DNA of 64,000 bases from a virus. Lineage: Duplodnaviria; Caudoviricetes. The stretch spans positions 10,637 to 74,636 of the IMG/VR virus record IMGVR_UViG_2513237360_000007; one strand, given 5' to 3'. The notes below the pieces were generated by a model. It saw only the letters and a program-made list of their open reading frames with translations. It searched no databases and was not told the origin of the DNA. Positions 10,602 through 44,817 of the stretch are shown in pieces (the first letter of the stretch is position 1; the number at the start of each line of letters is the position of its first letter). Position numbers and translations under genes: made by a program.

Positions 10602-10870
10602 ATTATATATAGTGTTTATAATAACATAGTATATATTATTATATATAAACTCTTTATATATATAGTTATATATAATAACTCTTTATATATATTATTATAT
10701 ATAATATATAAGGAATAAGGCGAAGCATAGCGCCGATCCGGCCAAAACCATTATAATATCCAGCATTTTCTGCATTTCATTTTCTTCGAGAGGATCTTCC
10801 ATCCCGCGTCCCTCTTTAGATCTTATACGCGATTCCCAATAAATGTAAATACCCACGGTACAAGGAGGTA

Positions 10871-10972: not shown

Positions 10973-13713
10973 TATCTCAACGGTATGTTTTTAAAATCCA
11001 TTCATCCCGGTTACGCCGGGCGAAATGGGATCTGCAGCTCTCGCTTGATCGTGCCAGAAAAAACAAAGAATTGATTGCTCTAAGCGAAAGCCAGATGATG
11101 CGGTTCATTGATGAGATCAACGGGATCACTAATCCCGAACTACACATATCATCAATACGCAGGGAGATAAAAAGGCTTAGGCGGGACAAGGATATTATAA
11201 GGTCCCGGCCAAAGGTTCAGCGGCTCTATGAAGAACTGGATCACTATCAGTTCAAAAAAGATTATGTGTGTGTCGTGATAGATAACGAAAAAGATTATTA
11301 TCACATATACAAGAGGGGATTCAAAATAAATGGCACAACATTCCGCAGGCTGCTGGGGACTACCGGCGGTATCAAGACAAACACTATCGTTTTTGTAAAC
11401 GAGCTGCTGCTGCCAGAATTAATGACAAGGATCAATAACGGGCGCGATCCTCGGAAGGAGTTTTCTCCAGCCAAACTTGAAGCATACATTGCATTAACAT
11501 GCAGCTCCTCCACTCCGGTTAGTATGCCGCGTGGCATTGTAGTTGTGCACGATTGTATTACACACTTCAAAGATGATGTGATCGAACTGGATGATACCGG
11601 AGTTGATCAACCAAAGATGCGGTTCCTCAAAAACCACGAGATTGAACTGAACAATAGCGATGGCTACGGGCTCGGGATGCCGTCCCTTATGGAACAATGG
11701 GGGATAGACATTGGAGAAGACTTTATCCTTCCTGCTTGTGTTATACGAAACTCATTCTGCAAAGGAGCTGTCGTATGTGTGGATTTTCAGCAATTCGCTT
11801 CAGACCATGGCCTGACAACCATACAAGATATCTGGGGGAACACGCATAGCATATTTGAAGTAGCACTTATCTTAACAGAATCAATGCTTAAGCTCTGGGA
11901 TTCCTACTCCTCCATTGACGATTATCTGGAAAACTGTAAAAAGAATCATTATACTTTTGCCATTACGAAGTCATCTGAGTCCGAACTTGAAAATATGAGA
12001 ACTATGAACTATCAGTTTTTACAAAGCTATGATTTTACAGACGAAGAAATTGACGAGTTGATTGCCCCTACAGTAAATGAGATACAGGACATCCTCTCCG
12101 GAGATTACAGGAAAACCATACTCTATGTAAAGGGCATCGGCCTGAATGATGATAATGTACAACACCTGGACACCTCTTTCGCAACTGCTCTGATGATTGA
12201 TAAGGAAATGCAGAAGGACCCGTTTGTACAAGATCAGATACGCGGGATGATCCGCAAGAGAATAGACAATGCAAAAGTTGGAGTCTTAAATGTTCCAGCA
12301 AACTATTCTATCATCTGCGGGGATCCGTACTCCCTTTGCCAATCCATGTTTGGCCTGGAAGTGACCGGGCTGCTCCAGAAGGGGCAGATCTATTCAAAAT
12401 ACTGGATTGATCATGGTATAAACAGAATAGCCAGCTTCCGGGCGCCTATGACATCACACAATAATATCAGACTCTTAGATGTTGTCCATAACAGCGAAAT
12501 GGATGAATTCTACCGTTATATTACCACTCCCACCATTTTTAATAGCTGGGACACCTGCGCCCAAGCCATGAATGGGTTCGACTTTGATGGTGATTGTGTG
12601 ATCAACACATCCCTGCCATTAATAGTAAATAACACGCACCAGCTGCCGGCCATATGTTGCGTGCAGCGAAAGGCTCCAAAATGTGTCCCCACTTCTGATG
12701 ATCTGATGGCATCCAATATCAAAAGCTTTGGAAATGCGGTTGGCCCCATTACCAATAAAATCACCTCAATGTATGATGTTAAAGCACGGTTTTCTCCCGG
12801 CAGCCGAGAATACAACATCATGGACTATAGGATAAAATGCGGTCAGCTTTATCAGCAGAACGCTATTGACAAAAGCAAGGGAATTGAAGCGCGTCCAATG
12901 CCCGCAAAGTGGTATAATTGGATTTCCAATAAGGTAACTCGTACTCAACCATCAAGAGAAAAGAAATATAATGTACTCAACCGTTATCTCCTGGCCGACA
13001 AAAAACCATATTTCATGAAATACATATACCCCTCATCAAAAGCGGAATATGAAAAATATCTTAAATCAAATAGTGATAAGTGCATACTAAGGTTCTCGCT
13101 TACGCTGGATGAGTTGATCAGCAAGCCCACCCATACGGCAGAGGAAGAACAATTTTTAAAGGCTTATTACATTGGCCTTCCTCTGGGTATGGCCCCCTGC
13201 ACATTAAACCGTATATGCTGGAAAATAGAAAGTATCTTTGACAAGTATTATTTACCGCTGAAGGATAATTTTGATTACTCGATCCTGAAATCAGATGTAG
13301 AATACACCCCTTATATGTTTGGGAAAATCAAAAGGATCTATGATGAGTATGTATCAGAACTGCGGGAATACAGTAAAGTATGTGCCAAAGAAAGGATTAA
13401 AGATTATGACAGCAAGACACTAAAATTCACTTTACAGGAAAACTTCAGAAGGCACTGCGTGGAAGCATGCCCAAATGCCGACATGCTATGCAATATCATC
13501 CTGGATATATGTTATACCAAAAATGGTTCTAAAAGATTCGCCTGGGACATGTGCGGTGAAACCATTATCCAGAATCTATTGAAACGAAACAACTATAAAA
13601 TAACATACCCTACGTATGATCAGAACGGAGACATTGAATTTGGAGGTAACACATATAGGATGACAACCACAGATATAAAAGTTGCTATAGATATTGAGGA
13701 TACCATTCATTGA
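10957..13713 (+). CDS. yonO: YonO-like single-subunit DNA-dependent RNA polymerase (two-barrel, RdRP-like)
   Basis: FRAP and catalytic GFDFDGD motifs; position upstream of head genes as in SPbeta; frame extends 38 codons upstream of the track start to an ATA codon 8 nt after AGGAGG (10943-48). Confidence 0.9.
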   Translation: MPKHLISQRYVFKIHSSRLRRAKWDLQLSLDRARKNKELIALSESQMMRFIDEINGITNPELHISSIRREIKRLRRDKDIIRSRPKVQRLYEELDHYQFKKDYVCVVIDNEKDYYHIYKRGFKINGTTFRRLLGTTGGIKTNTIVFVNELLLPELMTRINNGRDPRKEFSPAKLEAYIALTCSSSTPVSMPRGIVVVHDCITHFKDDVIELDDTGVDQPKMRFLKNHEIELNNSDGYGLGMPSLMEQWGIDIGEDFILPACVIRNSFCKGAVVCVDFQQFASDHGLTTIQDIWGNTHSIFEVALILTESMLKLWDSYSSIDDYLENCKKNHYTFAITKSSESELENMRTMNYQFLQSYDFTDEEIDELIAPTVNEIQDILSGDYRKTILYVKGIGLNDDNVQHLDTSFATALMIDKEMQKDPFVQDQIRGMIRKRIDNAKVGVLNVPANYSIICGDPYSLCQSMFGLEVTGLLQKGQIYSKYWIDHGINRIASFRAPMTSHNNIRLLDVVHNSEMDEFYRYITTPTIFNSWDTCAQAMNGFDFDGDCVINTSLPLIVNNTHQLPAICCVQRKAPKCVPTSDDLMASNIKSFGNAVGPITNKITSMYDVKARFSPGSREYNIMDYRIKCGQLYQQNAIDKSKGIEARPMPAKWYNWISNKVTRTQPSREKKYNVLNRYLLADKKPYFMKYIYPSSKAEYEKYLKSNSDKCILRFSLTLDELISKPTHTAEEEQFLKAYYIGLPLGMAPCTLNRICWKIESIFDKYYLPLKDNFDYSILKSDVEYTPYMFGKIKRIYDEYVSELREYSKVCAKERIKDYDSKTLKFTLQENFRRHCVEACPNADMLCNIILDICYTKNGSKRFAWDMCGETIIQNLLKRNNYKITYPTYDQNGDIEFGGNTYRMTTTDIKVAIDIEDTIH

Positions 13714-15617: not shown

Positions 15618-15691
15618 GCGAATATTGAGTAATGGCTATCTCCCTTGCCTTCCAAGCAAGTATATTGCTGGTTCGAATCCGGTTATTCGCT
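15618..15691 (+). tRNA. tRNA-Gly(TCC)
   Basis: GCGAATA/TATTCGC acceptor, CTTGC-CTTCCAA-GCAAG anticodon arm, TTCGAAT T-loop. Confidence 0.85.
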
Positions 15692-33936: not shown

Positions 33937-36900
33937 GTGGCTAATAAAGGAGTAGATATTGAATTTAAAGGAGGTTTTAATGATGATGATATTATTAAAG
34001 CTCTCCGTAAGGTAAATGGCGAAATAGATGAGACCAAGAAGAATGCTGAAGAACCAATTAAAGTTAATCTCGGTGGATTTGTAAAAGAATTCACAAAAGA
34101 GTTTGATGAAATTGATCGTATTATAGCTAAAAGAAAAGCTAATATTGATAAAAGGGTCATCAATTACATCCCCAAGATCCAATTCAACTTGCGTGATGTT
34201 GAGTTATGGGAAGAAACACAAAAGAAAATTGATCGGCAGATAGCAAAAGCCAGAATGAACTATGATCTTCCATCATTACAGACCGATTCATTTTCTAAGC
34301 AGCTAATCGCCAGAGAGAAACTTCTTGCTAGACTAGGCGAAAACACATCAAAACATAAAGCCTTAAAGCAAGTATGGATGGATGATGGACCATCTATAAG
34401 CAAAGCAAGAGCCAATATTGAGCTACTGCAACAACAAATAGCTTTAAAAGAAAAAATTCTACAAATAGATACAAAAGTAAAACCCTTTCTTCCAAAAAGC
34501 GATTGGTCTACAAAATTTAATGGATCCGATGTAAATGCGCAAAAGGAAGCATTAAAAGAATCAAAAAGATTAATGGCTGATGAACTCTATACTGCTGCTG
34601 ATAAAGAAAAAGAAAATATATTGGTAGCGTTAAAGGATTATGAAAAATCTGCTAACAAAATAATGAGAGAAGGCAAATTCGATGAGTTTGTTTTCCCGGA
34701 TCTTATTAGTAAATTTAATGCTATCGAATCATCTGCTCAAGACTATTTAATGAAGCTCGGCCTCATTAAAGGAAAGACTTCCGAAACGCTAGAAACTTCA
34801 CATAAGCAACTTACTTCATCTGCTCAGTTATTTGACAAATATGGGGCTACTGCCGAAGAAGTATTCGTGAAGATTGACAAAATATTTTCTCAGGCTAATG
34901 ATAGCGATGATGGCTTTTATGGATTAAGCAGTAGGAGCATTTCAGACCTCACAAAGATGATGGCTTTACTGGAACACTTTTCTGAGGGTGATTTATCGAA
35001 GCTTTCTTTAGAAGGTGATGAGTTCTTTGGCTTCCAAGATGAGCTAAAAGAAATCCAGAGTTTCTTAAAAGATGAATTTACAGTTGACGAATCATTAGAA
35101 GAAGTATTTAAATCCACAATAGATCAACTCAATCAATTGGAGTCTACTGCTGAGGAAGCTGTTCCTGCTATTGAAAAAGTGGAAAATTCCCTTAATCCAG
35201 ATAGTGATGAATCTAAAATAGAGGCAAAAACTGACGCCATTGAAAATTTAACCGAAGCAATGCAGCGCCAGGCAGAATCTGATGAAGCTTTATCAAAAAC
35301 ATCATCATTATCCGATGATCATATCACTAATATAGAAAACACCACGGAAGCCATTAACCAATTGAATGAAGCTGAAAAAGAAAGGGATAAGTTAGATGCC
35401 CCCACCGCTTCTATCGATTCCACGTTGGATACTGATATTGATAAACTTGAGAAAAAAACTAAAGCTACTAAAGAGTTAGATGATGTACAGGAAAAGCAGA
35501 AACAAAATGAAATTGCGCTCCAAAAAGAACTCTTATTCTTAGACGAACGAGAGAATTCATATTGGGAGACACGGGAAAAGCTTTTAAAAGATGGAGTTGC
35601 ACAGCAAGAAGCTTATGCTAACTTAAGGAAAGAACAAGAAAATAATTATAACCAAAGTTGGATTATAGCAGAGACTAACAGGATGTTATCATCCTATGCT
35701 GCGGCTGAAGGTAAAGTAATTGGCTATGGGCGTGCAGTTCAAAGTGCCAGTGATAAGGCTAATCATCTGGCGACTGCCTGGGAGAATGGTAGCATATCTG
35801 CAAAGAAATATGAAACAGAGATAGCAAAAATCAATAGTGAATTAAGTAATAAAAAATATAACTTAACCGGCGCAGAGACCGGCGTCTTTTCGACTAATCC
35901 ACAGAACATAATTATACTGGAAAAAGAGATGCGCGCTCTTGCTCTGGCAACTGAAGGTATTATTCCAGAAAGTATTGCATTCAATGAACAATCAAAAAGA
36001 ATGTCATATGAAACAAAAGATGCTGCTGGAAATATTAGTAAGTATTCTATTGCCATCAATTCACTTAATGACGAACTTCTTCGTTATCAAACAAAGACTA
36101 TTCAGGCCATAGGTCCAACACAAGAATTTTTCAACTTTTTATCTCAGAGTTTTAAGAAGGTATCGTCATATATCTTTAGTTTTGGGTCTTTTTATAGATT
36201 ATGGGCAGAACTAAAACAGGGAATTACTATCATTCGTGACATTGATGATGCCATGACTGAACTCAAGAAGGTCAGTGATGAAACTGCCTATACATACACT
36301 AAGTTTCAAAAGCAGGCAGCTGCCGAAGGGCGCGATGTTGCCCAAACTACGAGCGACATGGTTCAGGCTTCGTCTGACTGGAAAAAGATGGGATACAATT
36401 TACAGGAATCCCTTAATCTCGCAAAATCATCATCACTCTATGTTAATGTTGGTGACGATGTTAACATAACCGAGGCTACATCAGACTTAGTTTCTACCAT
36501 TAAAGCGTTTAATATGAACGCAGATGATTCAATAGGCATTGTTGATCGTCTAAATGCTGTATCAAATAATTTTGCTGTCACATCAAAAGATCTAGGAAAT
36601 ATTCTAAATCATTCCTCATCCTCTCTCGCTGCCGCCAATACTTCAATAGATAAAACAATAGCAATGGGCGCTGCCATGAATGAAGTTCTACAAGATAGTT
36701 CTACTTCTGGTAGCACATTGAAAATATTGTCCATGAGGCTACGCGGAGCAAAAGTAGAATTAGAGGCTGCGGGTGAATCAACTGAAGGTATGGCAGAATC
36801 CACATCAAAACTTCGCGAAAAAATCAAAGCCCTGACGAACATAAATGGATCTGGCGGATTTGACATAATGAAGGATGATAATACATTCAAAGATGTATAC

Positions 36901-37293
36901 GAAATGATGGATGGAATTGCTGAAAAGTGGAAAGGTATGGATGATATATCCAGAGCTGGCTTACTTGAATTAATCGCAGGTAAGATGAGAGCTCAAGGAG
37001 TATCTGCGCTTTTAAACAATTGGTCCGAAGCCGAAGCCATACTAAAAACTTCCTTGGATTCATCTGGATCAGCAGCCAAAGAAAACGAAACCTATCTTGA
37101 TTCAATATCTGGTCGCGTTAAGCAATTACAGGCTCAGTATCAAGAGCTTTGGCAGACCACCCTAAATGACGATTCAATCAAATTCTTTATTGAACTTGCG
37201 ACAAGTGTCACTAAAGTTGCAACTGATATGGGAGGACTACTTCCTATAGTTGCAACCTTAACGACATTATTAGCTGGTATCAAATATGCGGGT
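33937..37293 (+). CDS. Tape measure protein, exon 1 (1119 codons)
   Basis: Long helical ORF with TP901-type TMP core (IDDAMTELKKVS...LKILSMRLRG); ends GCG GGT at the predicted 5' splice site. Confidence 0.88.
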
Positions 37294-37836
37294 AAAGTAA
37301 TTCGTAACCGTGACAACGAATGTGCCCTTCTCATTAATGCTGCGTAATATACTCCCACAAAGTAAACGATGAGAATGTCCCGTCACGTAAATAAATAACT
37401 AAGGGACGCATAGGCGTATAATATGCTGGGAACTCCCCCAAACACCTCTTCACCGAAACTCACCGAAAGGTGTGCTGTACAGCCGGGGCCGTGAGGCAGA
37501 AAAAAGTAAGAGGTTCTTGTTCAGAACAAAATTCTGTTCAATACACCAGTCCAATATTTTCTGGTCAAGGGAGGGTCAATAGGTAGCCCATATGGGTGAA
37601 AGCAGGCTGTTTCCTAAGTGCGTAAGCATATGGAATCGCCCCAGAGACTGACAAGGCCGGTCTGCCCGCAGGGATAATTGCGTGCGGATTCAAAATACAG
37701 TCCAAATGCCGAAGGAAATTGGATAACACTTCGGTCGGAGTAGTGCTCCGTGTGGTACTCTTCTTCTATTGCCTGGTGCAACGGGTTATCCCGGTGGCAA
37801 TCGAAGTGCTCTTAAATGAGTGATATTTTCTAAAAA

Positions 37837-38052
37837 TTATAAAAGGAAATAAAACATTAAAATAGCCAAAAATATAAAGATAATAATCCAAAGTAATGAT
37901 TCTCCAGTGGGCTTCTGTCCCTTCACTTTTTTATTCTTCGTCTGTTTTAGAGAAAACCTCTTGGGTGTCTTTTCTCTATCAACACCTCTTGCCTGATCAA
38001 AAAGATAGTGATCTCGGGAGTCGATTTTATTATCATGGTTCATGTCAAACAT
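37837..38052 (-). CDS. Intron cargo: 71-aa membrane-anchored protein
   Basis: EF-hand-like DMNHDNKID motif, C-terminal TM helix, AGAGGG SD. Confidence 0.7.
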   Translation of the reverse strand: MFDMNHDNKIDSRDHYLFDQARGVDREKTPKRFSLKQTKNKKVKGQKPTGESLLWIIIFIFLAILMFYFLL

Positions 38053-38079
38053 AACTTCAATTCCCTCTACTACATATTA

Positions 38080-39222
38080 CTAAATAATCAGTTCTACAAT
38101 ACCTTCATACAAAGTTCCGCTTTCTAAAATAGCCTCTTTAATTTGTGTGCTAGTGGTCAGAGGAGGAAAACTGGCGAAATCACACTGAGAATATTCCACA
38201 TTGTTGTTAATACAGTAATTTTTTTTATTACAATAGCAATCAATATTTTTTGACTCACAATTATATTTGTTTAGTCTAAACGTTTTTGGGGGGATTTTGT
38301 TTGCATCAAGTCGCTGTTTACAATTCAGTGAATTGTAATATCTATATAGAGGAAAATATTCATTGTCAAGATTATATAATGCAATTTTCTCTTCTAGATC
38401 AAGTTTTTTATATTGCCTATATTTCTCTTTAACCCACTCATCAAGGCGATAGAGATCCTTTGACCAATCTCGAAATCCCTCCATTATGCTCTTATGAATT
38501 CCACTATTTATATCATCCTCTAACCTCTTGTACCAATCTGCCTGTTTTAAAGGCACAATGCCAAAATCAAAATTTGCAAAATTATAAAAGTCAATCTCTA
38601 AGTCAGGCATTTTTCCATTTCTGATTCTTTTTTGATTTTTAAAAAACCAATCTTTAGAAAGGGTATTCTTTAATTCCGTTGGGTGGATAGGATTCCTTTT
38701 ATTCCTCTCTCTAAAATCATTTATTTCATTTATTCCGATAATAGCTTTTTCTATTGTTGAAAAATAATAATGTGGAAACTTAATAATAACTGACCTAAGT
38801 TGCAAAGTACTATTTAATTTAATCCTATATAATCGTAACATATTAAGAGATGTACTATAACTCCGCTTAGCATTATTGTATGAGTCCAAGTAAGCTGAAT
38901 TATCCTCCAAGTATATACATTTTTCATTAATATACTTTATTGTTTTTTTTATCTCATCAATTTCTTGTCGCAATATTTGAATTGATTCCTTTAAAAATGC
39001 AATCTTTTTATCTATAGCAATATACTTTAGTGGGTTATTTAATACATCAGCTTTGTTGCCAGAATTCCTAGCACGTTTACTCTTGGTCCTTAATTCCTGT
39101 ACTTGCTTTTCAATTTTCTCAATACTGTTATATAATATTTGTAAATCATCATAAGATGCCTGTATGTCCCGTCTTTTTTCCACTTTAGCAGTTTGAATCC
39201 ATTTAAACTGTTCCTTTGGCAT
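38080..39222 (-). CDS. Intron cargo: 380-aa hypothetical protein (coiled-coil N-terminus, Cys-rich C-terminus)
   Basis: AAGAGG SD, low-GC long ORF; no endonuclease motif recognised. Confidence 0.8.
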   Translation of the reverse strand: MPKEQFKWIQTAKVEKRRDIQASYDDLQILYNSIEKIEKQVQELRTKSKRARNSGNKADVLNNPLKYIAIDKKIAFLKESIQILRQEIDEIKKTIKYINEKCIYLEDNSAYLDSYNNAKRSYSTSLNMLRLYRIKLNSTLQLRSVIIKFPHYYFSTIEKAIIGINEINDFRERNKRNPIHPTELKNTLSKDWFFKNQKRIRNGKMPDLEIDFYNFANFDFGIVPLKQADWYKRLEDDINSGIHKSIMEGFRDWSKDLYRLDEWVKEKYRQYKKLDLEEKIALYNLDNEYFPLYRYYNSLNCKQRLDANKIPPKTFRLNKYNCESKNIDCYCNKKNYCINNNVEYSQCDFASFPPLTTSTQIKEAILESGTLYEGIVELII

Positions 39223-39324
39223 ATAGTATATTTACCTCTTAATCATTCTATGCAAAAAGTATTTGTATCCCAACCAATTGCATCAAAATTATAGCCTATT
39301 TCATTTCTCTCATAATATCTTTAA

Positions 39325-39504
39325 CTAATCTATCTCTTGATAATATTCGCTCCATACATTTCGCCAAGTAATCGTTCTGGTAATTTCATCAAAAAAATTA
39401 TTATTATTCAACACGGTATGTTTTAAATACGCAGAACACTCTTCTGCTATTTTTATTGGATCTTTCTTTTGATCTAATGCCAACAAATAATTATAGATTA
39501 CCAT
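39325..39504 (-). CDS. Intron cargo: 59-aa hypothetical peptide (MVIYNYLLALDQ...)
   Basis: ATG overlaps the upstream stop (ATGGTAA); below ORF track cut-off. Confidence 0.4.
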   Translation of the reverse strand: MVIYNYLLALDQKKDPIKIAEECSAYLKHTVLNNNNFFDEITRTITWRNVWSEYYQEID

Positions 39505-39875
39505 TCATATCCACAATTATCACAGTGAAACTGACGTTTCACTTTCTGCGAAAATATCCCAAAAGCCAGTACCGATCCTGCCTTTGATATCTCTGATATT
39601 TTATGAACATTTGTGCTTGAACAAGTTGGGCAACGAACAACATGTTCTTTTTTATATTCATTGCGCAATCGCATATCATTACTATTTTCAAAGGAGATGT
39701 ATTTCTCAACTATAACCCTTGCTTCATCAGGGCTACATCCTCCGACTTCGCTAATTCTTTGTATTAACCTTTTTCTTTCATGAACACTATTACTTTTCCG
39801 AATTTCAGTAAAAAGCGAACTACTTTTTTGCAAAATTTTGCGTTCATTTAAAGTATATTTTTGAGATACCATCAT
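39498..39875 (-). CDS. Intron cargo: zinc-ribbon protein
   Basis: CPTCSSTNV...GSVLAFGIFS...HCDNCGYEW; GAGGGGAGGGG SD. Confidence 0.85.
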   Translation of the reverse strand: MMVSQKYTLNERKILQKSSSLFTEIRKSNSVHERKRLIQRISEVGGCSPDEARVIVEKYISFENSNDMRLRNEYKKEHVVRCPTCSSTNVHKISEISKAGSVLAFGIFSQKVKRQFHCDNCGYEW

Positions 39876-39901
39876 TATTTCCCCTCCCCTCTTTTTAACC
39901 A

Positions 39902-39930
39902 ATTATAACATATGAATATATGCAATGCAC
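39902..39930 (-). promoter_or_regulatory. sigmaA-type extended -10 promoter for the antisense cargo operon
   Basis: On minus strand GTGCAT-17 nt-TATAAT with TG at the extended -10 position. Confidence 0.65.
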
Positions 39931-39969
39931 CTGCTATTTCATATATGTATGGCTACCTACCACATTGTG

Positions 39970-42900
39970 ACATTCGAATTAGTTGGGGAAAAAATAAATG
40001 GAATCAAGGCCGCCGTCACATCATCATCATCTCTAAAAAACATAACAAATGAACTCTTAGAGCTGACAAAAGATATGACTGTCCAGAAAACAATGGAATA
40101 TTTGTCTTATGCCCAAGTCAATAAGCAACTGGCCGCCAGGATACTATATTCTAAGGGATTACGGGCAGAACAGCTCAAGGAAGCCATGTCTACCTATCAA
40201 ATAGCTACAGCAACAGGAATACTTGGTACAGCACAAAAAGTAACGTCTGCTACAACAGTACTGTTTTCCAGAACAATTGTCCAATCCAAATTCCTGCTCC
40301 AAGGTTTATGGGCTACCCTAATGGCCAACCCGTTAATCCTAGTTGTCGGCTTAATATCAGCAGTTACTCTGGGAGTTACAAAATGGAAACAGGCTCAAGA
40401 AGAATTACGCCAGACTACAGCGGATGCAGCAGCCGAACTAGAAAACTCATCAAAAGAAATTGGCACTTATGCGGATAGATATAAGGAACTTCATACAGCT
40501 CTTCATGATGCAAAAGATAGTGAAGAAGAAACATACAAAATTAAGAGTGATCTATTAGCACTTCAAAAAGAATTAAACGAGAAATACGGTGATGAGTATG
40601 GGAAAATCAATCTCGTCACTGATGCTTATAGAGATCAGACGGAGGCTATTCTAGCTTACAAGCGTGCTGCCAGCGAGAAATATTTAAATGAGAATCGCTT
40701 AGGTATTAATGATGCCAAGCAAAAAATGACTGAAATCAATACCTTCCAATTGGCAGATATGATTTCATCAAAATCCAGTTCTGGAATATCCATTAAAAAT
40801 CTAGCCAAAAAGCATGGTATAAAAATCGCGGAAAATGAAGAGTATGGATTGTTTAGTCTATACATTAAAGCAGACGCTACTCAAGCCAAAGAAACAACAA
40901 ATAGTTTCATGACTGACTTGAGCAAGATGCAAGGCAGATTTAATGATAGTGCCGTAGAAAATGTACTGGATTCTTCCAGCCGGGTCATGAAGAACCTTCA
41001 GGATGATTTCTTCAATCTGTATGGAGACCAATTCCAAGAAGCACTATTGGCTGAAGTCCAAACGGACTATGGACGGGCTGATAATGTCCTCTCTCAAGGA
41101 TATAGTGATGCCACTGCCGCGGTAAATGAATACAATGAAGCATTACTAAAAAGTTCTAATCCGTATGATGACAAAGCCGTTACTGAAGCGTATGAAAACT
41201 TGCAGATCATCCGAGCTTCTATAGAAGAAAATTCCAGTGCATGGGATGGATACGAGTCTGTTATTAGTGATGTATTTAGTGCTGCTGATACAAGACTTAT
41301 CGATTTCAATAATCTCATTGGTTCCAACAAAGAGGGGATCGGGGATTTAGTTTCTGAAATCAAGGATTTGAATTTGTCGGATGTGGACTTACAAGCTATG
41401 TCGGATAATGGAGCAAATGGTGATATCTTTGATCGGTTATCCGCAAAAGCAAAACGGTATCAAGTTAATGTTGGAGAGCTGATATCATTATTAGTTCAAC
41501 TTGGTGTTGTACAGAGTACAGTATCCAAGCAGGAAATTGTTAAGCCCCAAACCAAAGCCGAAGCAATCAGTGCCGTAAACGCTCTTACTGATGGTTTTGA
41601 AGAATTGGATAAGATTTACAAAAGCCTCAAGGGAAAAGATCCGTTTGACTTTTCATTGCTTGATAATAAAAATTTCAAGGATACATTTGGCGGACTCGGC
41701 AAAAGCTACACGGACTTCGTAGAACAAATAGCAAGTTCTCCTAAAGATATTGCTGCTTGTCAAAGTGCTTTTAATGACTTGATCACCACATGGCTTGAAA
41801 GCACCCACATCTTAGATGATGTTAATGAAGATACTGCGGGCGTAACCGTGGCAATGCTTAAAATTATGGGTGTTGCAAATGCCGAAGAATTGGTAATGAG
41901 CCATCTCGCCGATGCTCATGAATACGCAGCGCTTGAGAAGAAATTCAATGCTGAGATGTCAGCTAATCTTGAGGGAGCCACTGCCAGCGAGATTAATAAA
42001 ATTTTTGATGAAGCAGATGTTGTTGACGAGGCAAAACAAGCGATGGCTGGATTTGCTCTGCAAAAAGAAATTGCCAATGGAATATCCCTTGATACCTCTG
42101 CAGACATTGAAAACTTACTTGCACTCGTTGGAATAATCGGTTCTGCTAATACTGCATTAAAAGCCTTAAATACATTACGACAAGGCGGCGATGTTGGCGG
42201 AAATATTGGCGGTAAGGAAGGCTATGACTATCTTGTTCGACAGGCACAGCTTGAAATTGAAGAAGCTTTAAAGAAGGCTGCCGAATATAAAGGAAAAGGC
42301 AAGGTCAATTACATTGGTGGTAATGAATCCAACAAAAGTGGCTCAAAAGGGAGTAAGCCTAAAAAGCCAACAGAATTTGATGCAGCTGCGGAATCAGTTA
42401 AAAATCTAAAAGCCCAAATTGACTCCTTAAATGGCGTACTTGAAAATACGAAGCCTTATGATCAGCAGCTAAGAATTCTTAATCTCATTGTTGAAAAACA
42501 GAAGGAATACTTTGATGCGTTAAAAAAGCAGGATGAATTTTACAATGGAGCATACCAGCAGTCCCTCTCTTCTCTACCTCAAGAATGGCAAGATAGGATT
42601 ACCGGCGATGATAACTTTTCCATTGATGAGGTTCCTGAATCCATAAAAGATGCTGTCACAGAAGCTCAGGGATTGAAAGATAAATGGGTTGCTGTAAAAC
42701 AAGAGATCCAAAAAGCAAACGGTGAATTGGATACGACCAAGCAAAAGACGCATGATTTAGCTCAAACAAAGTTAGATAATGAAATTGGTCTTCTTGAGAA
42801 TAAAATAACTGATATCCAAAATAAAATGGACGAAGCTGAAGCCATGGGCTTGCAATCCACCAAAAAGCAGTATAAGAACTTAATCAGTCTTTCAAAACAG

Positions 42901-44817
42901 GCTGCTTCCTACCAACAGAATAAGCTTCAAGGATATATGGCAAATCTAATCGCCATGGAGGTTGCCGGAGAAACAAACACCGACCAGTATTACGAAACCG
43001 CTGAAGCAATCCAGAATTGCGAAAATGCAATATCCCAATGTGCTCAGAATCAAGCCAAATGGAATAAGGCTATGTTGGAACTTCCCATTCAATATTTAGA
43101 GAAGGCCAATGATGAGCTCAATGACCAGCTGGAGGAGTTACAGGACAAGCAGAACGATTATGACAGTGCTATAAATGGTGTCACCAGCCATTTGCAAGAA
43201 CAAATTGACGCCCAGCAAAAACTAAGGGATGAAGCAGAAAAAACATCGCAGGCTCAGATCGATGCTATTCAGGAACAAATTGATGGCCTCCAGGAATCAA
43301 ACGATAAGCGTAAGCAACAGCTAGAATTAGAGCAAAAGCAATATGATCTTGAACGGGCTAAGAATCAAAAGACAACTAAAGTCTTCCGTGAAGAAGCTGG
43401 CGGCTTTATATATGAAGCTGATCAAAGCGCTATTCGTGATGCCCAAGATGCTTATGATGATGCTCTCTTGAACAAGCAATTGTCTGATCTGGAAGACAAG
43501 ATTAAGGACATTGAGGATTCACGCGATGCATTGTTAGATTCTTATGATAATGAAATTGACCGGCTTCAAACAATTATGGATTCATGGAATGATATTACTG
43601 ATGCAATCCAACGAGCTAAAGATATGGCTATGGCTAATTCTATCTTCGGCGCTGGATGGCAAGATCGTGTTACCAGTGGCGATACAAGTGATTTAGAAGA
43701 CATAACCGGCAAGTATGATAAAAATGATCGTGATCGCTCTTGGGTGGAAGAACAAATTGAAGCCAATGAACGGCTTATCCGTGAAGTTGAACGATATGTA
43801 TCAGCTTGGCAGATGGGAGAAATCAGCATCCGGGAGGCCCGGGAATCTATTAATGATATTGTAGGAGATATTGCTCCTGAAATTGAGGCAAACGATGAGC
43901 GTGTCAATAGTATTTCAACTTACCAGGATCAATGGACCAATGCTAATGATAGGGTAAGCGAAAACATTAGCGCCCTCAATGATACAACTGCTAATAACAG
44001 TGCCGAGGTAAATGCAACAAACCAACGGCGTGATGCTGCATTACAGTATGCTGATCAATGGGCCAATAATGTTCTTTCCGTTGGAAGTTCGCTATCTAAC
44101 ATTACTGAAGCCAACGCCGCTGCCACAAATGCTGAAGGTTTATTTCTTGATGCCAGAATAAGCAAATTAAGTCTTTTCAAAGATGTTTATGCCGAAATGG
44201 CTTCTGTAATTGGAGACAAATGCAAAAGCATTGTTGATGCATGCAAAGAAGCAGAACGAGCATTACGTAGTTTGGATAAAGCAGAGAATGGTGGTGGATC
44301 CTCAAGCGGTGGTCATTGGGACTCTTCCGGTGCGTCCGGGGGCCCAGGCGTATACGCTGATGGAATATTAAATGGGCGTCTTGGTGGACGTAGCGAATCT
44401 GAAAAAGAAAAGATGCTTAAGTATCTGACTACACATGATCTTAAAAATGGAGAAATTCCTATTATTGGTCATGAAAATGAAGTCGTCTTGAACCCTGATC
44501 AGCAGGAACAGGCCATTCAGAATACGGAGAAATTGGCTGACGTTTCAGGTGCCCAACTCATATTTGACGCCGATAACATTTCCTCATTCTCAGGAATGCT
44601 TAGCAATAATGCTATGTTTACTAAAGGAAATATCTTCAAAGGTATCTCAACTCTCCCACCGAATGTCTCCAACAGTAATGTAAGACACGGGGATATAAAG
44701 GTTGAGATAGCTAATGTGACATTGCCACGTGTAAAAGATAGTGATAGCTTCCTAAAATCCATGACTGATGGCAGCATGCAATCTGCTATTCAACAACAAC
44801 TTTATAAACGAAGATAG
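39970..44817 (+). CDS. Tape measure protein, exon 2 (1615 aa)
   Basis: Long coiled-coil TMP C-half; no SD before the track ATG at 39925; in frame with exon 1 after splicing. Confidence 0.88.
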   Translation, partial: TFELVGEKINGIKAAVTSSSSLKNITNELLELTKDMTVQKTMEYLSYAQVNKQLAARILYSKGLRAEQLKEAMSTYQIATATGILGTAQKVTSATTVLFSRTIVQSKFLLQGLWATLMANPLILVVGLISAVTLGVTKWKQAQEELRQTTADAAAELENSSKEIGTYADRYKELHTALHDAKDSEEETYKIKSDLLALQKELNEKYGDEYGKINLVTDAYRDQTEAILAYKRAASEKYLNENRLGINDAKQKMTEINTFQLADMISSKSSSGISIKNLAKKHGIKIAENEEYGLFSLYIKADATQAKETTNSFMTDLSKMQGRFNDSAVENVLDSSSRVMKNLQDDFFNLYGDQFQEALLAEVQTDYGRADNVLSQGYSDATAAVNEYNEALLKSSNPYDDKAVTEAYENLQIIRASIEENSSAWDGYESVISDVFSAADTRLIDFNNLIGSNKEGIGDLVSEIKDLNLSDVDLQAMSDNGANGDIFDRLSAKAKRYQVNVGELISLLVQLGVVQSTVSKQEIVKPQTKAEAISAVNALTDGFEELDKIYKSLKGKDPFDFSLLDNKNFKDTFGGLGKSYTDFVEQIASSPKDIAACQSAFNDLITTWLESTHILDDVNEDTAGVTVAMLKIMGVANAEELVMSHLADAHEYAALEKKFNAEMSANLEGATASEINKIFDEADVVDEAKQAMAGFALQKEIANGISLDTSADIENLLALVGIIGSANTALKALNTLRQGGDVGGNIGGKEGYDYLVRQAQLEIEEALKKAAEYKGKGKVNYIGGNESNKSGSKGSKPKKPTEFDAAAESVKNLKAQIDSLNGVLENTKPYDQQLRILNLIVEKQKEYFDALKKQDEFYNGAYQQSLSSLPQEWQDRITGDDNFSIDEVPESIKDAVTEAQGLKDKWVAVKQEIQKANGELDTTKQKTHDLAQTKLDNEIGLLENKITDIQNKMDEAEAMGLQSTKKQYKNLISLSKQAASYQQNKLQGYMANLIAMEVAGETNTDQYYETAEAIQNCENAISQCAQNQAKWNKAMLELPIQYLEKANDELNDQLEELQDKQNDYDSAINGVTSHLQEQIDAQQKLRDEAEKTSQAQIDAIQEQIDGLQESNDKRKQQLELEQKQYDLERAKNQKTTKVFREEAGGFIYEADQSAIRDAQDAYDDALLNKQLSDLEDKIKDIEDSRDALLDSYDNEIDRLQTIMDSWNDITDAIQRAKDMAMANSIFGAGWQDRVTSGDTSDLEDITGKYDKNDRDRSWVEEQIEANERLIREVERYVSAWQMGEISIREARESINDIVGDIAPEIEANDERVNSISTYQDQWTNANDRVSENISALNDTTANNSAEVNATNQRRDAALQYADQWANNVLSVGSSLSNITEANAAATNAEGLFLDARISKLSLFKDVYAEMASVIGDKCKSIVDACKEAERALRSLDKAENGGGSSSGGHWDSSGASGGPGVYADGILNGRLGGRSESEKEKMLKYLTTHDLKNGEIPIIGHENEVVLNPDQQEQAIQNTEKLADVSGAQLIFDADNISSFSGMLSNNAMFTKGNIFKGISTLPPNVSNSNVRHGDIKVEIANVTLPRVKDSDSFLKSMTDGSMQSAIQQQLYKRR

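Follow-up and report, generated by a model that had tools for sequence, protein, structure and literature searches.

The 64,000-nt window analysed here (the whole stretch of DNA, positions 10,637 to 74,636 of the IMG/VR record IMGVR_UViG_2513237360_000007, a 74.6 kb provirus) contains a gene for a tape-measure protein (TMP) that is split by an insert of 2676 nt. The comparative data indicate that this insert, located in a Lachnospiraceae-type prophage, is very probably a group I intron. The explanation that best accounts for the data as a whole, and that we consider probable, is that the intron is spliced out of the TMP message together with a cassette of antisense genes housed near its 3' end. 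The arrangement is recurrent and apparently undescribed: antisense cassettes of changing content, which would be independently promoted and are combined with a constant zinc-ribbon gene, occur here and in many related gut-phage genomes.

A tape-measure gene split by a probable intron

The interruption is apparent from two long plus-strand open reading frames (ORFs), 33937-37347 (1136 aa) and 39925-44817 (1630 aa), which represent the halves of a single TMP. The first half matches PF10145 in Pfam (2.7e-21) and the tape-measure family phrog_4211 in PHROGs (profile positions 525-946, 6.9e-69), and the second shows a weak match to phrog_4211 (profile positions 914-1744, E=0.049). Related phages encode the protein in one piece: a single uninterrupted TMP ORF of 1778-3406 aa runs across the junction position in 27 related IMG/VR loci, and the full-length proteins P0029, P0014 and P0018 are likewise uninterrupted there. 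Joining nucleotide 37293 to 39970 yields a 2734-aa TMP ORF without a stop codon, and this spliced protein is collinear with P0029, P0014 and P0018 through the junction to within a few residues. The DNA between the halves begins with about 480 nt that are ORF-free and G+C-richer (45-48%), followed by about 2.1 kb of AT-rich sequence that holds the cargo genes (25-35% G+C, against about 40% in the surroundings). A blastn search with positions 37300-40000 returned no match among 50,697 phage records.

Four close relatives from Logan and ENA assemblies, L031, L032, L033 and L034, show exactly the interruption seen in the window. Throughout the five loci, exon 1 ends in GCGGGU, the insert begins with AAA, the guide decamer GAAUGUGCCC lies 24 nt downstream, and the terminal G of the insert directly precedes the ACAUUC of exon 2. 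These splice-site and guide sequences are identical in loci whose exons differ at many synonymous sites, and they place the predicted splice sites at 37293|37294 (5') and 39969|39970 (3'). Specifically, the end of exon 1 would pair within P1, which is recovered by RNAalifold; its residues are invariant in the five loci and hence show no covariation, and the same GGGU/GCCC is present in a sixth, more distant core (L058). The guide segment GAAUGU (37318-37323), which adjoins the P1 strand on its 5' side, is the exact complement of ACAUUC (39970-75), forming a candidate P10 that is the same in L031-L034. A 5' splice site after CUCAUU (37335, pairing with GAUGAG) was considered and rejected: this helix is P2, no P10 follows it, and the protein homology ends earlier.

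Two further observations argue that the halves are joined at the RNA level. Past the 5' splice site, 17 in-frame codons are conserved at every base, third positions included, and the exon just upstream is not, which indicates that the RNA is conserved and not the protein. In L033, TAA TAG stands directly before the conserved exon-2 peptide TFSKIGGEINAIK and a start codon is absent, so that this peptide could not be translated without splicing. The possible starts in the window, GUG 39967 and AUG 39949, both lack a Shine-Dalgarno sequence.

A separate interruption of a related TMP gene, of about 1.2 kb, is found in L029 (4008-5243) at another, more upstream site and is accompanied by a frame change. 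No zinc-ribbon gene is nearby, and it may represent a different intron or an endonuclease insertion.

Predicted structure of the ribozyme core

The group I assignment is based on the structural and comparative analysis described here and not on Rfam. In the catalytic core (Table 1), the two strands of P7 are contributed by CAGAGACUGACA and AAAAUACAGUCC, which are similar to the classical R and S elements; this helix includes the guanosine-site G-C pair and is conserved, showing an A-U / G.U switch. P8 shows compensatory change at nine of its ten pairs in 35 distinct sequences, and compensatory changes also occur in each of P9, P9a and P9.1. The core is about 92% identical among the five loci (188-column alignment), and RNAalifold applied to the five cores recovers, in addition to P1, the helices P2 and P7, a 13-bp P8, P9, P9a and the P9.1 hairpin, with compensatory change in 26 of 136 predicted pairs.

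A search for an exact 25-nt core motif found no match in viral contigs or genome contigs, whereas a gapped pattern succeeded. A covariance model built from part of the core (R1) identified the sixth core, L058, and then 47 more after a gapped-pattern scan of IMG/VR. In a MAFFT-based pair count on six sequences, 99% of the cells are paired and 13 of 43 pairs show compensatory change, a result equalled by none of 500 shuffles; the corresponding covariation score is 0.31, compared with about 0.04 when the partners are slid. Additionally, the order P3, J3/4, P4, P5, P4', P6, J6/7, P7, P3', P8, P7', P9 can be read fairly cleanly in the L058-like cores, designated type B, which supports the assignment to the group I family by homology. 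Folding the core as a single sequence gave no improvement over shuffled controls (z = -1.2), a measure that is uninformative for pseudoknotted RNA.

Table 1. Coordinates of the split gene, the predicted intron and its cargo (window numbering; RNA pairings and promoter function are predictions)
Feature	Position	Strand	Remarks
TMP exon 1	33937..37293	+	1119 codons, C-terminal end ...LLAGIKYAG; homology to uninterrupted TMPs ends at 37293
Group I-type intron	37294..39969	+	2676 nt, a multiple of 3; sites from P1, P10 and terminal G; same in four relatives
P1	37290..37327	+	exon GGGU (37290-37293) / GCCC (37324-37327); U37293.G37324 at splice site
P2	37328..37375	+	UUCUCAUU/GAUGAGAA plus inner stem; compensatory changes in inner stem (C-G to U-A, G-C to A-U)
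Candidate P3 5' strand	37574..37577	+	GGUC, 4 bp with GGCC 37655-58; alternative GGC 37413-15 (in GGCG 37413-37416), 3 bp
Catalytic core	37646..37702	+	P7 GACUG 37646-50 / CAGUC 37698-702; P3' GGCC 37655-58; P8 37659-71 / 37678-90; J8/7 CAAAAUA
P9 / P9a / P9.1	37708..37801	+	P9 37708-14/37729-35; P9a 37736-40/37746-50; P9.1 AUUGCC 37768-73 / GGCAAU 37796-801
Long-range helix, 5' strand	37775..37780	+	GGUGCA in internal loop of P9.1; complementary to UGCACC 39926-39931, ~40 nt before 3' splice site; putative
71-aa protein gene	37837..38052	-	N-terminal DxNxDxKIDxxD loop (EF-hand or dockerin-like), C-terminal hydrophobic anchor; Shine-Dalgarno GAGGGA
380-aa protein gene	38080..39222	-	N-terminal coiled coil, Cys-rich C-terminus; orphan; good ribosome-binding site
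59-aa ORF	39325..39504	-	start overlaps zinc-ribbon stop codon (ATGGTAA); weakest gene call
Zinc-ribbon gene	39498..39875	-	125 aa from ATG 39875 behind GGAGGGG; listed ORF 39902-39498 = 134 aa from TTG
Antisense promoter	39902..39930	-	-35 GTGCAT 39930-25, 17 nt, TG-n-TATAAT; expected transcription start ~39895; putative function
Intron 3' tail	39932..39969	+	ends G39969
TMP exon 2	39970..44817	+	begins TFELVGEKINGIK; first six bases ACAUUC would pair in P10

A putative antisense cassette near the 3' splice site

An earlier, sequence-only reading of the window had described the insert as a group I intron with four minus-strand ORFs placed beyond P9, an extended -10 promoter just inside the 3' splice site, and no recognisable homing endonuclease or transposase motif. 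This description holds. In its P1, P10, terminal G, covarying P7-P9 and open spliced frame, the insert conforms to a group I intron. The four ORFs are located as described (Table 1), and P9, P9a and P9.1 all precede the first cargo ORF edge at 37837, P9.1 ending at 37801.

Group I introns usually tolerate ORFs by accommodating them in the loop of a peripheral helix. The data are compatible with such a solution here, in which the cargo would sit in the loop of a long-range peripheral helix formed between P9.1 and the end of the intron. This candidate helix comprises 7 bp (GGUGCAA/UUGCACC) in four relatives, and L195, which has a type B core, contains ACUUGCAA/UUGCAAGU at the corresponding places. 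A second possible pairing would connect GUGUGGUA (37750-57) with UACCACAU (39958-65). In other families, the search for the long-range helix was mostly swamped by AT-rich chance matches.

The putative antisense promoter contains the extended -10 element TGTTATAAT at 39910-39902 on the minus strand. L031-L034 have the -10 element at the corresponding position, with conserved spacing, as TGNTATAAT in three of these loci and as TGCTATACT in L033. A generic promoter scan did not list this promoter, because its -35 element matches just three of six positions. The first gene behind it encodes the zinc-ribbon protein, for which ATG 39875 is more likely to be the start than the TTG of the listed ORF, and ribosome-binding sites precede the zinc-ribbon, 380-aa and 71-aa genes. 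The 71-aa protein starts with an invariant DMNHDNKIDSRDH motif that resembles a calcium loop of the EF-hand or dockerin type, and has homologues in L031, L032 and L033.

Searches of Pfam, PHROGs, NCBIfam and PADLOC with the four cargo proteins found no nuclease or transposase family (LAGLIDADG, GIY-YIG, HNH, His-Cys, PD-(D/E)XK, TnpB and others) and no defence or other family. The similarities to PF07282 (E=0.07) and PF12760 (0.0027) lie below the cut-offs and concern the zinc ribbon only, with no RuvC or Y1 domain. For the 380-aa protein, Pfam, NCBIfam and PADLOC gave just coiled-coil noise and the Atlas offered no lead, its model of the protein being poor (pLDDT 0.45).

A terminator-like hairpin with a T-run is present within the cargo on the plus strand (39431-39457) and, if functional, would end late transcripts short of exon 2; a single site of this kind is close to the chance expectation.

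Turnover of the cargo

The sequence-only reading had further proposed that the ribozyme makes an essential gene a neutral landing pad for accessory genes, and had suggested that a conserved intron core and 3' segment should be found to flank variable cargo in related TMP loci. The four close relatives bear out the latter. L031-L034 retain the core, the guide and the final 45-65 intron nucleotides, around cargo that brings the intron to 1057 nt in L034, 2676 nt in the window, 3568 nt in L032, 4502 nt in L031 and 5243 nt in L033. The number of genes ranges from one in L034, which contains the zinc-ribbon gene alone, to six or more in L033. A gene of about 400 aa is common to L031, L032 and L033, and the window has the unrelated 380-aa gene instead; a 274-aa gene is common to L032 and L033. 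The remaining cargo genes are unique to their locus, and three of those in L031 are on the sense strand. In Pfam and PADLOC, the relatives' cargo yielded only coiled-coil noise and one retropepsin-like aspartyl protease (PF13975, just above the cut-off), encoded on the sense strand in the differently loaded TMP insert of L022 (7560-8057).

The landing-pad proposal itself stands only in part. The middle of the cargo does vary among the five loci, but the zinc-ribbon gene is present in all five, always adjoining the 3' splice site, and the small EF-hand-like membrane protein is encoded in four of the five. The cargo thus appears to be swappable except for the zinc-ribbon gene, and the element is, on this comparison, better viewed as a constant antisense cassette with a variable middle than as a neutral landing pad.

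The zinc-ribbon gene and interrupted tape-measure genes

The constant protein consists of an N-terminal helical domain and a C-terminal CPxC...CxxC ribbon with the pattern CPxCxSxNxxKISxxSKxGSVxxxGxxSxKxxKQxHCxxC, in which four Cys plus Ser, Lys, Gln, His and Gly residues are invariant. An AF2 model shows a five-helix domain and the ribbon (pLDDT 73). A sequence search of the PDB gave a best E of 1.3, a Foldseek comparison with the PDB returned no structure at E up to 0.001, and the Atlas search returned only unnamed zinc-ribbon clusters; a weak ArpU-family match (E=0.009) is far below the cut-off. The family is large: 283 IMG/VR stretches encode a relative, and the family as a whole comprises 3556 clusters at 50% identity (E up to 0.001). 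The N-terminal parts of the relatives are variable, and none of 150 relatives examined contains a nuclease domain.

The genomic context ties this family closely to split TMP genes. Among the 79 loci retained, almost all have the zinc-ribbon gene divergent from, and just upstream of, an ORF of 1000-1630 aa, and 47 of the 79 have an exon-1-like TMP segment beyond the zinc-ribbon gene on the same strand as the large ORF. Where cores found by R1 are accompanied by downstream DNA, the core is followed by 2-5 kb, then by the antisense zinc-ribbon gene and a large plus-strand ORF. The gene also adjoins the downstream TMP half in the inserts of L022, L035-L037 and L071, the non-coding parts of which are matched by neither R1 nor nhmmer, and is the sole gene in the inserts of about 0.95-1.1 kb of L071 and Hungatella hathewayi. 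Conversely, no zinc-ribbon gene lies within 6 kb of the TMP gene in any of the 27 uninterrupted loci, and one is present in L022, the one locus of that set that is interrupted at this site. The virus record that holds the window has a single copy. Because it is constant in all five loci, adjoins the 3' splice site or the start of a large ORF in dozens of further phage loci and is absent from the 27 uninterrupted loci, the zinc-ribbon gene belongs to the element itself. Two options for its role remain live, namely that it was the founding passenger or that it encodes the element's own nucleic-acid-binding factor.

The Hungatella inserts (L035/L036:6057-7001; GCA_018364655.1 / GCA_000235505.1) place about 0.95 kb between the TMP halves, with the antisense zinc-ribbon gene alone, at a site about five codons downstream of that used in the window. 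The insert of L071 is homologous to them and shows compensatory changes in its first hairpin. In L120, an antisense zinc-ribbon gene (1015-1467) lies just upstream of a 998-aa ORF, and a core of the window's family (12651-12831) follows a 1071-aa ORF 11 kb further on; this locus may hold two introns in one tail module. Two sequencing runs contain traces of the gene. X14, a wastewater run for which the RNA-Seq label is a guess, yielded two 151-nt contigs identical to the zinc-ribbon gene (39435-39826) and nothing else of 3.7 kb, which is too thin to speak of expression, and in X8, a mouse-gut DNA run, coverage is limited to this gene.

Model and alternative explanations

In the model that we consider probable, once the late operon has been transcribed, the ribozyme core (37294 to about 37806) would fold, and P1 (GGGU/GCCC), P10 (GAAUGU/ACAUUC) and the terminal G would direct the joining of the exons, restoring the 2734-aa TMP. 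The foreign DNA, approximately 2.1 kb located between the core and the final 40-70 nt of the intron, would be looped out in the RNA by the GGUGCA/UGCACC helix. This DNA would constitute a self-contained antisense cassette, composed of the promoter, the zinc-ribbon gene, a variable middle (here the 59-aa ORF and the orphan 380-aa gene) and the EF-hand-like membrane protein. Genes could be gained and lost in the loop without harm to the essential tail gene, because splicing would remove the whole loop. As the promoter faces away from exon 2, the cassette could be expressed while the late operon is silent; the promoter may be active in the lysogen, and the cassette may benefit phage or host. The sequence-only reading had attributed such expression to the host sigma factor and had suggested that antisense transcription might also dampen leaky late expression; both would be conceivable.

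Several observations weigh against this model or parts of it. Rfam gave no match to group I introns (RF00028), neither at the gathering score on the whole window nor at E up to 10 on 36800-40600 and on the 521-nt core 37330-37850, and 13 relatives likewise gave no group I match at the gathering score. This is weak counter-evidence, since the library appears insensitive here: in the TMP insert of L037, the Q, R and S elements (AGUCAGCAGC, GUUCAUCGACUGUA and AAAGACAGUC, respectively) are close to textbook form, and Rfam is equally silent on that core at E up to 10. The fold is less clear 5' of P7. Comparison with more distant cores leaves two rival candidates for the 5' strand of P3 (Table 1), for both of which relatives covary (AAUC/GGUU, AACC/GGUU, CACC/GGUG, UGUC/GACA, UGCC/GGCA), and an exhaustive complement search for P3 and P4 in the five-sequence alignment found nothing convincing. 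In the P4-P6 region, a P-like element (GGGUCAAUAGG), a Q-like element (AAUCGCC) and several covarying hairpins are visible, and no single canonical assignment can be derived from the window core and its relatives. The largest pair count (35 distinct sequences, 95% paired, 33 of 43 pairs compensatory, covariation 0.39 against 0.03-0.05 with slid partners) comes from an alignment fitted to the covariance-model structure, which biases it toward that structure; the slid-partner controls and the six-sequence count agree with it.

Other adverse points concern expression and the cargo. No RNA run containing the stretch was found, and no spliced read or antisense transcript was seen; the exon-exon joint is absent from four sequencing runs (X2, X5, X8 and X14), which contain only short identical contigs. 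No intrinsic terminator was found after the cassette on the minus strand. The 380-aa protein matches only itself among 5.8 billion proteins and the 59-aa ORF has no homologue in the relatives, so that their status as genes depends on ORF length and, for the 380-aa gene, its ribosome-binding site. Finally, the intron is present in all close relatives, and recent mobility is therefore not evident.

Among the alternatives, the one that survives best assigns the cassette a different logic. It is possible, though on the unlikely side, that the zinc-ribbon protein is the element's own factor, taking the place of a homing endonuclease or maturase as a folding aid, in spread or retention by recombination, or in control of the antisense promoter, and that the other genes are later hitch-hikers. 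The constancy of this gene amid varying cargo, its fixed place beside the 3' splice site, its presence in inserts that R1 and nhmmer do not match (L022, L035-L037, L071), its absence from the 27 uninterrupted loci and the minimal elements that hold it alone (L034 and Hungatella L035/L036) would all be expected of such a factor, and a helical domain with a zinc ribbon would suit nucleic-acid binding. However, neither the protein nor the variable N-terminal parts of its relatives contain a nuclease domain, it has no other catalytic motif, and neither sequence nor fold searches of the PDB reveal a similar protein. Its antisense orientation and own promoter would uncouple it from transcription of the intron, unlike a maturase, and a single old insertion followed by co-inheritance could account for the association of intron and gene. 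A broader version of this idea is more tentative still: the zinc-ribbon protein might be the hallmark of a large, as yet undescribed class of group I introns in phages, which would use an antisense-encoded, non-nuclease factor for retention, spread or folding, with the adjoining loop serving as a hotspot for lysogen-expressed accessory or defence genes of temperate gut phages.

It is improbable that the cargo is mostly dead weight, consisting of decaying remnants or chance ORFs in AT-rich DNA that are tolerated through splicing, with no cassette expressed. The missing homologues of the 380-aa and 59-aa ORFs, the poor model of the former, the lack of a terminator and the low G+C content of the cargo would fit that picture. 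It accounts poorly, however, for the protein-level conservation of the zinc-ribbon and 71-aa products among loci whose cargo is very different, for an open frame of 1143 nt that is improbable by chance at about 30% G+C, and for the three ribosome-binding sites, the overlap of the 59-aa ORF with its neighbour as if translationally coupled, and the conserved -10 element.

Least probable is the possibility that no splicing takes place, the TMP being made as two proteins and the 2.7 kb being a moron island of the ordinary type whose leader RNA is structured. In its favour, stand-alone C-halves of about 1600 aa are a frequent gene-caller annotation, the first exon-2 codon is immediately preceded by ATG, GTG or TTG in several loci, and Rfam finds no intron, but two separate proteins are hard to reconcile with the stop codons and missing start in L033, the lack of a ribosome-binding site before exon 2 in the window, the third-position conservation of 17 codons past the splice site and not of the exon, the exact fit of P1, P10 and the terminal G, the covarying P7-P9, and uninterrupted homologues that are collinear across the junction.

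Relation to known systems

The probable TMP intron with its antisense cassette combines features of several known systems. In IStrons, such as CdISt1 of Clostridioides difficile and BcISt1 of B. cereus, a 5' group I ribozyme is joined to IS200/IS605-type cargo, the transposase genes of which drive spread. As in these elements, a large block of foreign genes near the 3' end of the ribozyme would be spliced out whole, so that the host gene survives; unlike IStron cargo, the genes in the window include no TnpA, TnpB or other transposase domain, are antisense with a putative promoter of their own, and vary among relatives. Other phage group I introns, including those of T4 (td, nrdB, nrdD), SPO1 and Twort, contain looped-out homing endonuclease genes. 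Their ORFs encode endonucleases (GIY-YIG or HNH, and LAGLIDADG in other systems) and are usually on the sense strand. The element in the window resembles them in that an ORF would occupy a peripheral loop while the core still folds, and in its position in a conserved part of an essential gene, and differs in having no nuclease motif and four antisense genes. Morons, known from lambda and HK97, are extra genes with their own promoter located between the late genes of temperate phages. The cassette shares with them a putative promoter-gene unit in the late structural region, a deviant composition (25-35% as against about 40% G+C) and a content that differs between related phages. Unlike a moron, it lies inside a gene and would be harmless only through RNA splicing, no terminator was found, and its expression in the lysogen is a prediction.

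The closest precedent by location is provided by TMP genes of Bacillus cereus-group prophages, which, according to the searched passages of Tourasse and Kolsto (2008, PMC2504315), hold the group I introns TMP-IVS1, IVS2 and IVS3a/b; these are compact IA1 or IA2 introns that are mostly ORF-less, with a GIY-YIG or HNH gene or remnant in a few. The introns described there resemble that of the window in being inserted in frame into a TMP gene of a prophage, in having a stop codon shortly past the 5' splice site, in the definition of this site by P1 and P10 and, in most copies, in lacking a homing endonuclease and being inherited together with the prophage. The window differs in the 2.1 kb of antisense, non-endonuclease genes in the putative 3' loop and in a core that Rfam does not recognise, and the searched passages of PMC2504315 mention no antisense gene, promoter or cargo. 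Full-text literature searches on group I introns likewise found no description of this antisense-cargo TMP layout.

If the cassette is expressed, self-splicing introns would present a further storage place for the accessory genes of temperate phages. To our knowledge, phage group I introns have been seen as selfish RNAs with at most a homing endonuclease. Such a place would also be protected, because any imprecise deletion destroys the TMP gene. The layout is easily overlooked in annotation, as the TMP is called as two separate halves, the ribozyme escapes Rfam and the cargo has the appearance of lying between genes. Additionally, the strict link with interrupted TMP genes offers an experimental handle on a large zinc-ribbon family without an assigned function, and a cultured strain, Hungatella hathewayi (GCA_000235505.1), has a minimal version of the layout.

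Elsewhere in the window, the sole Rfam match is a tRNA gene at 15618-15691 (50.7 bits).

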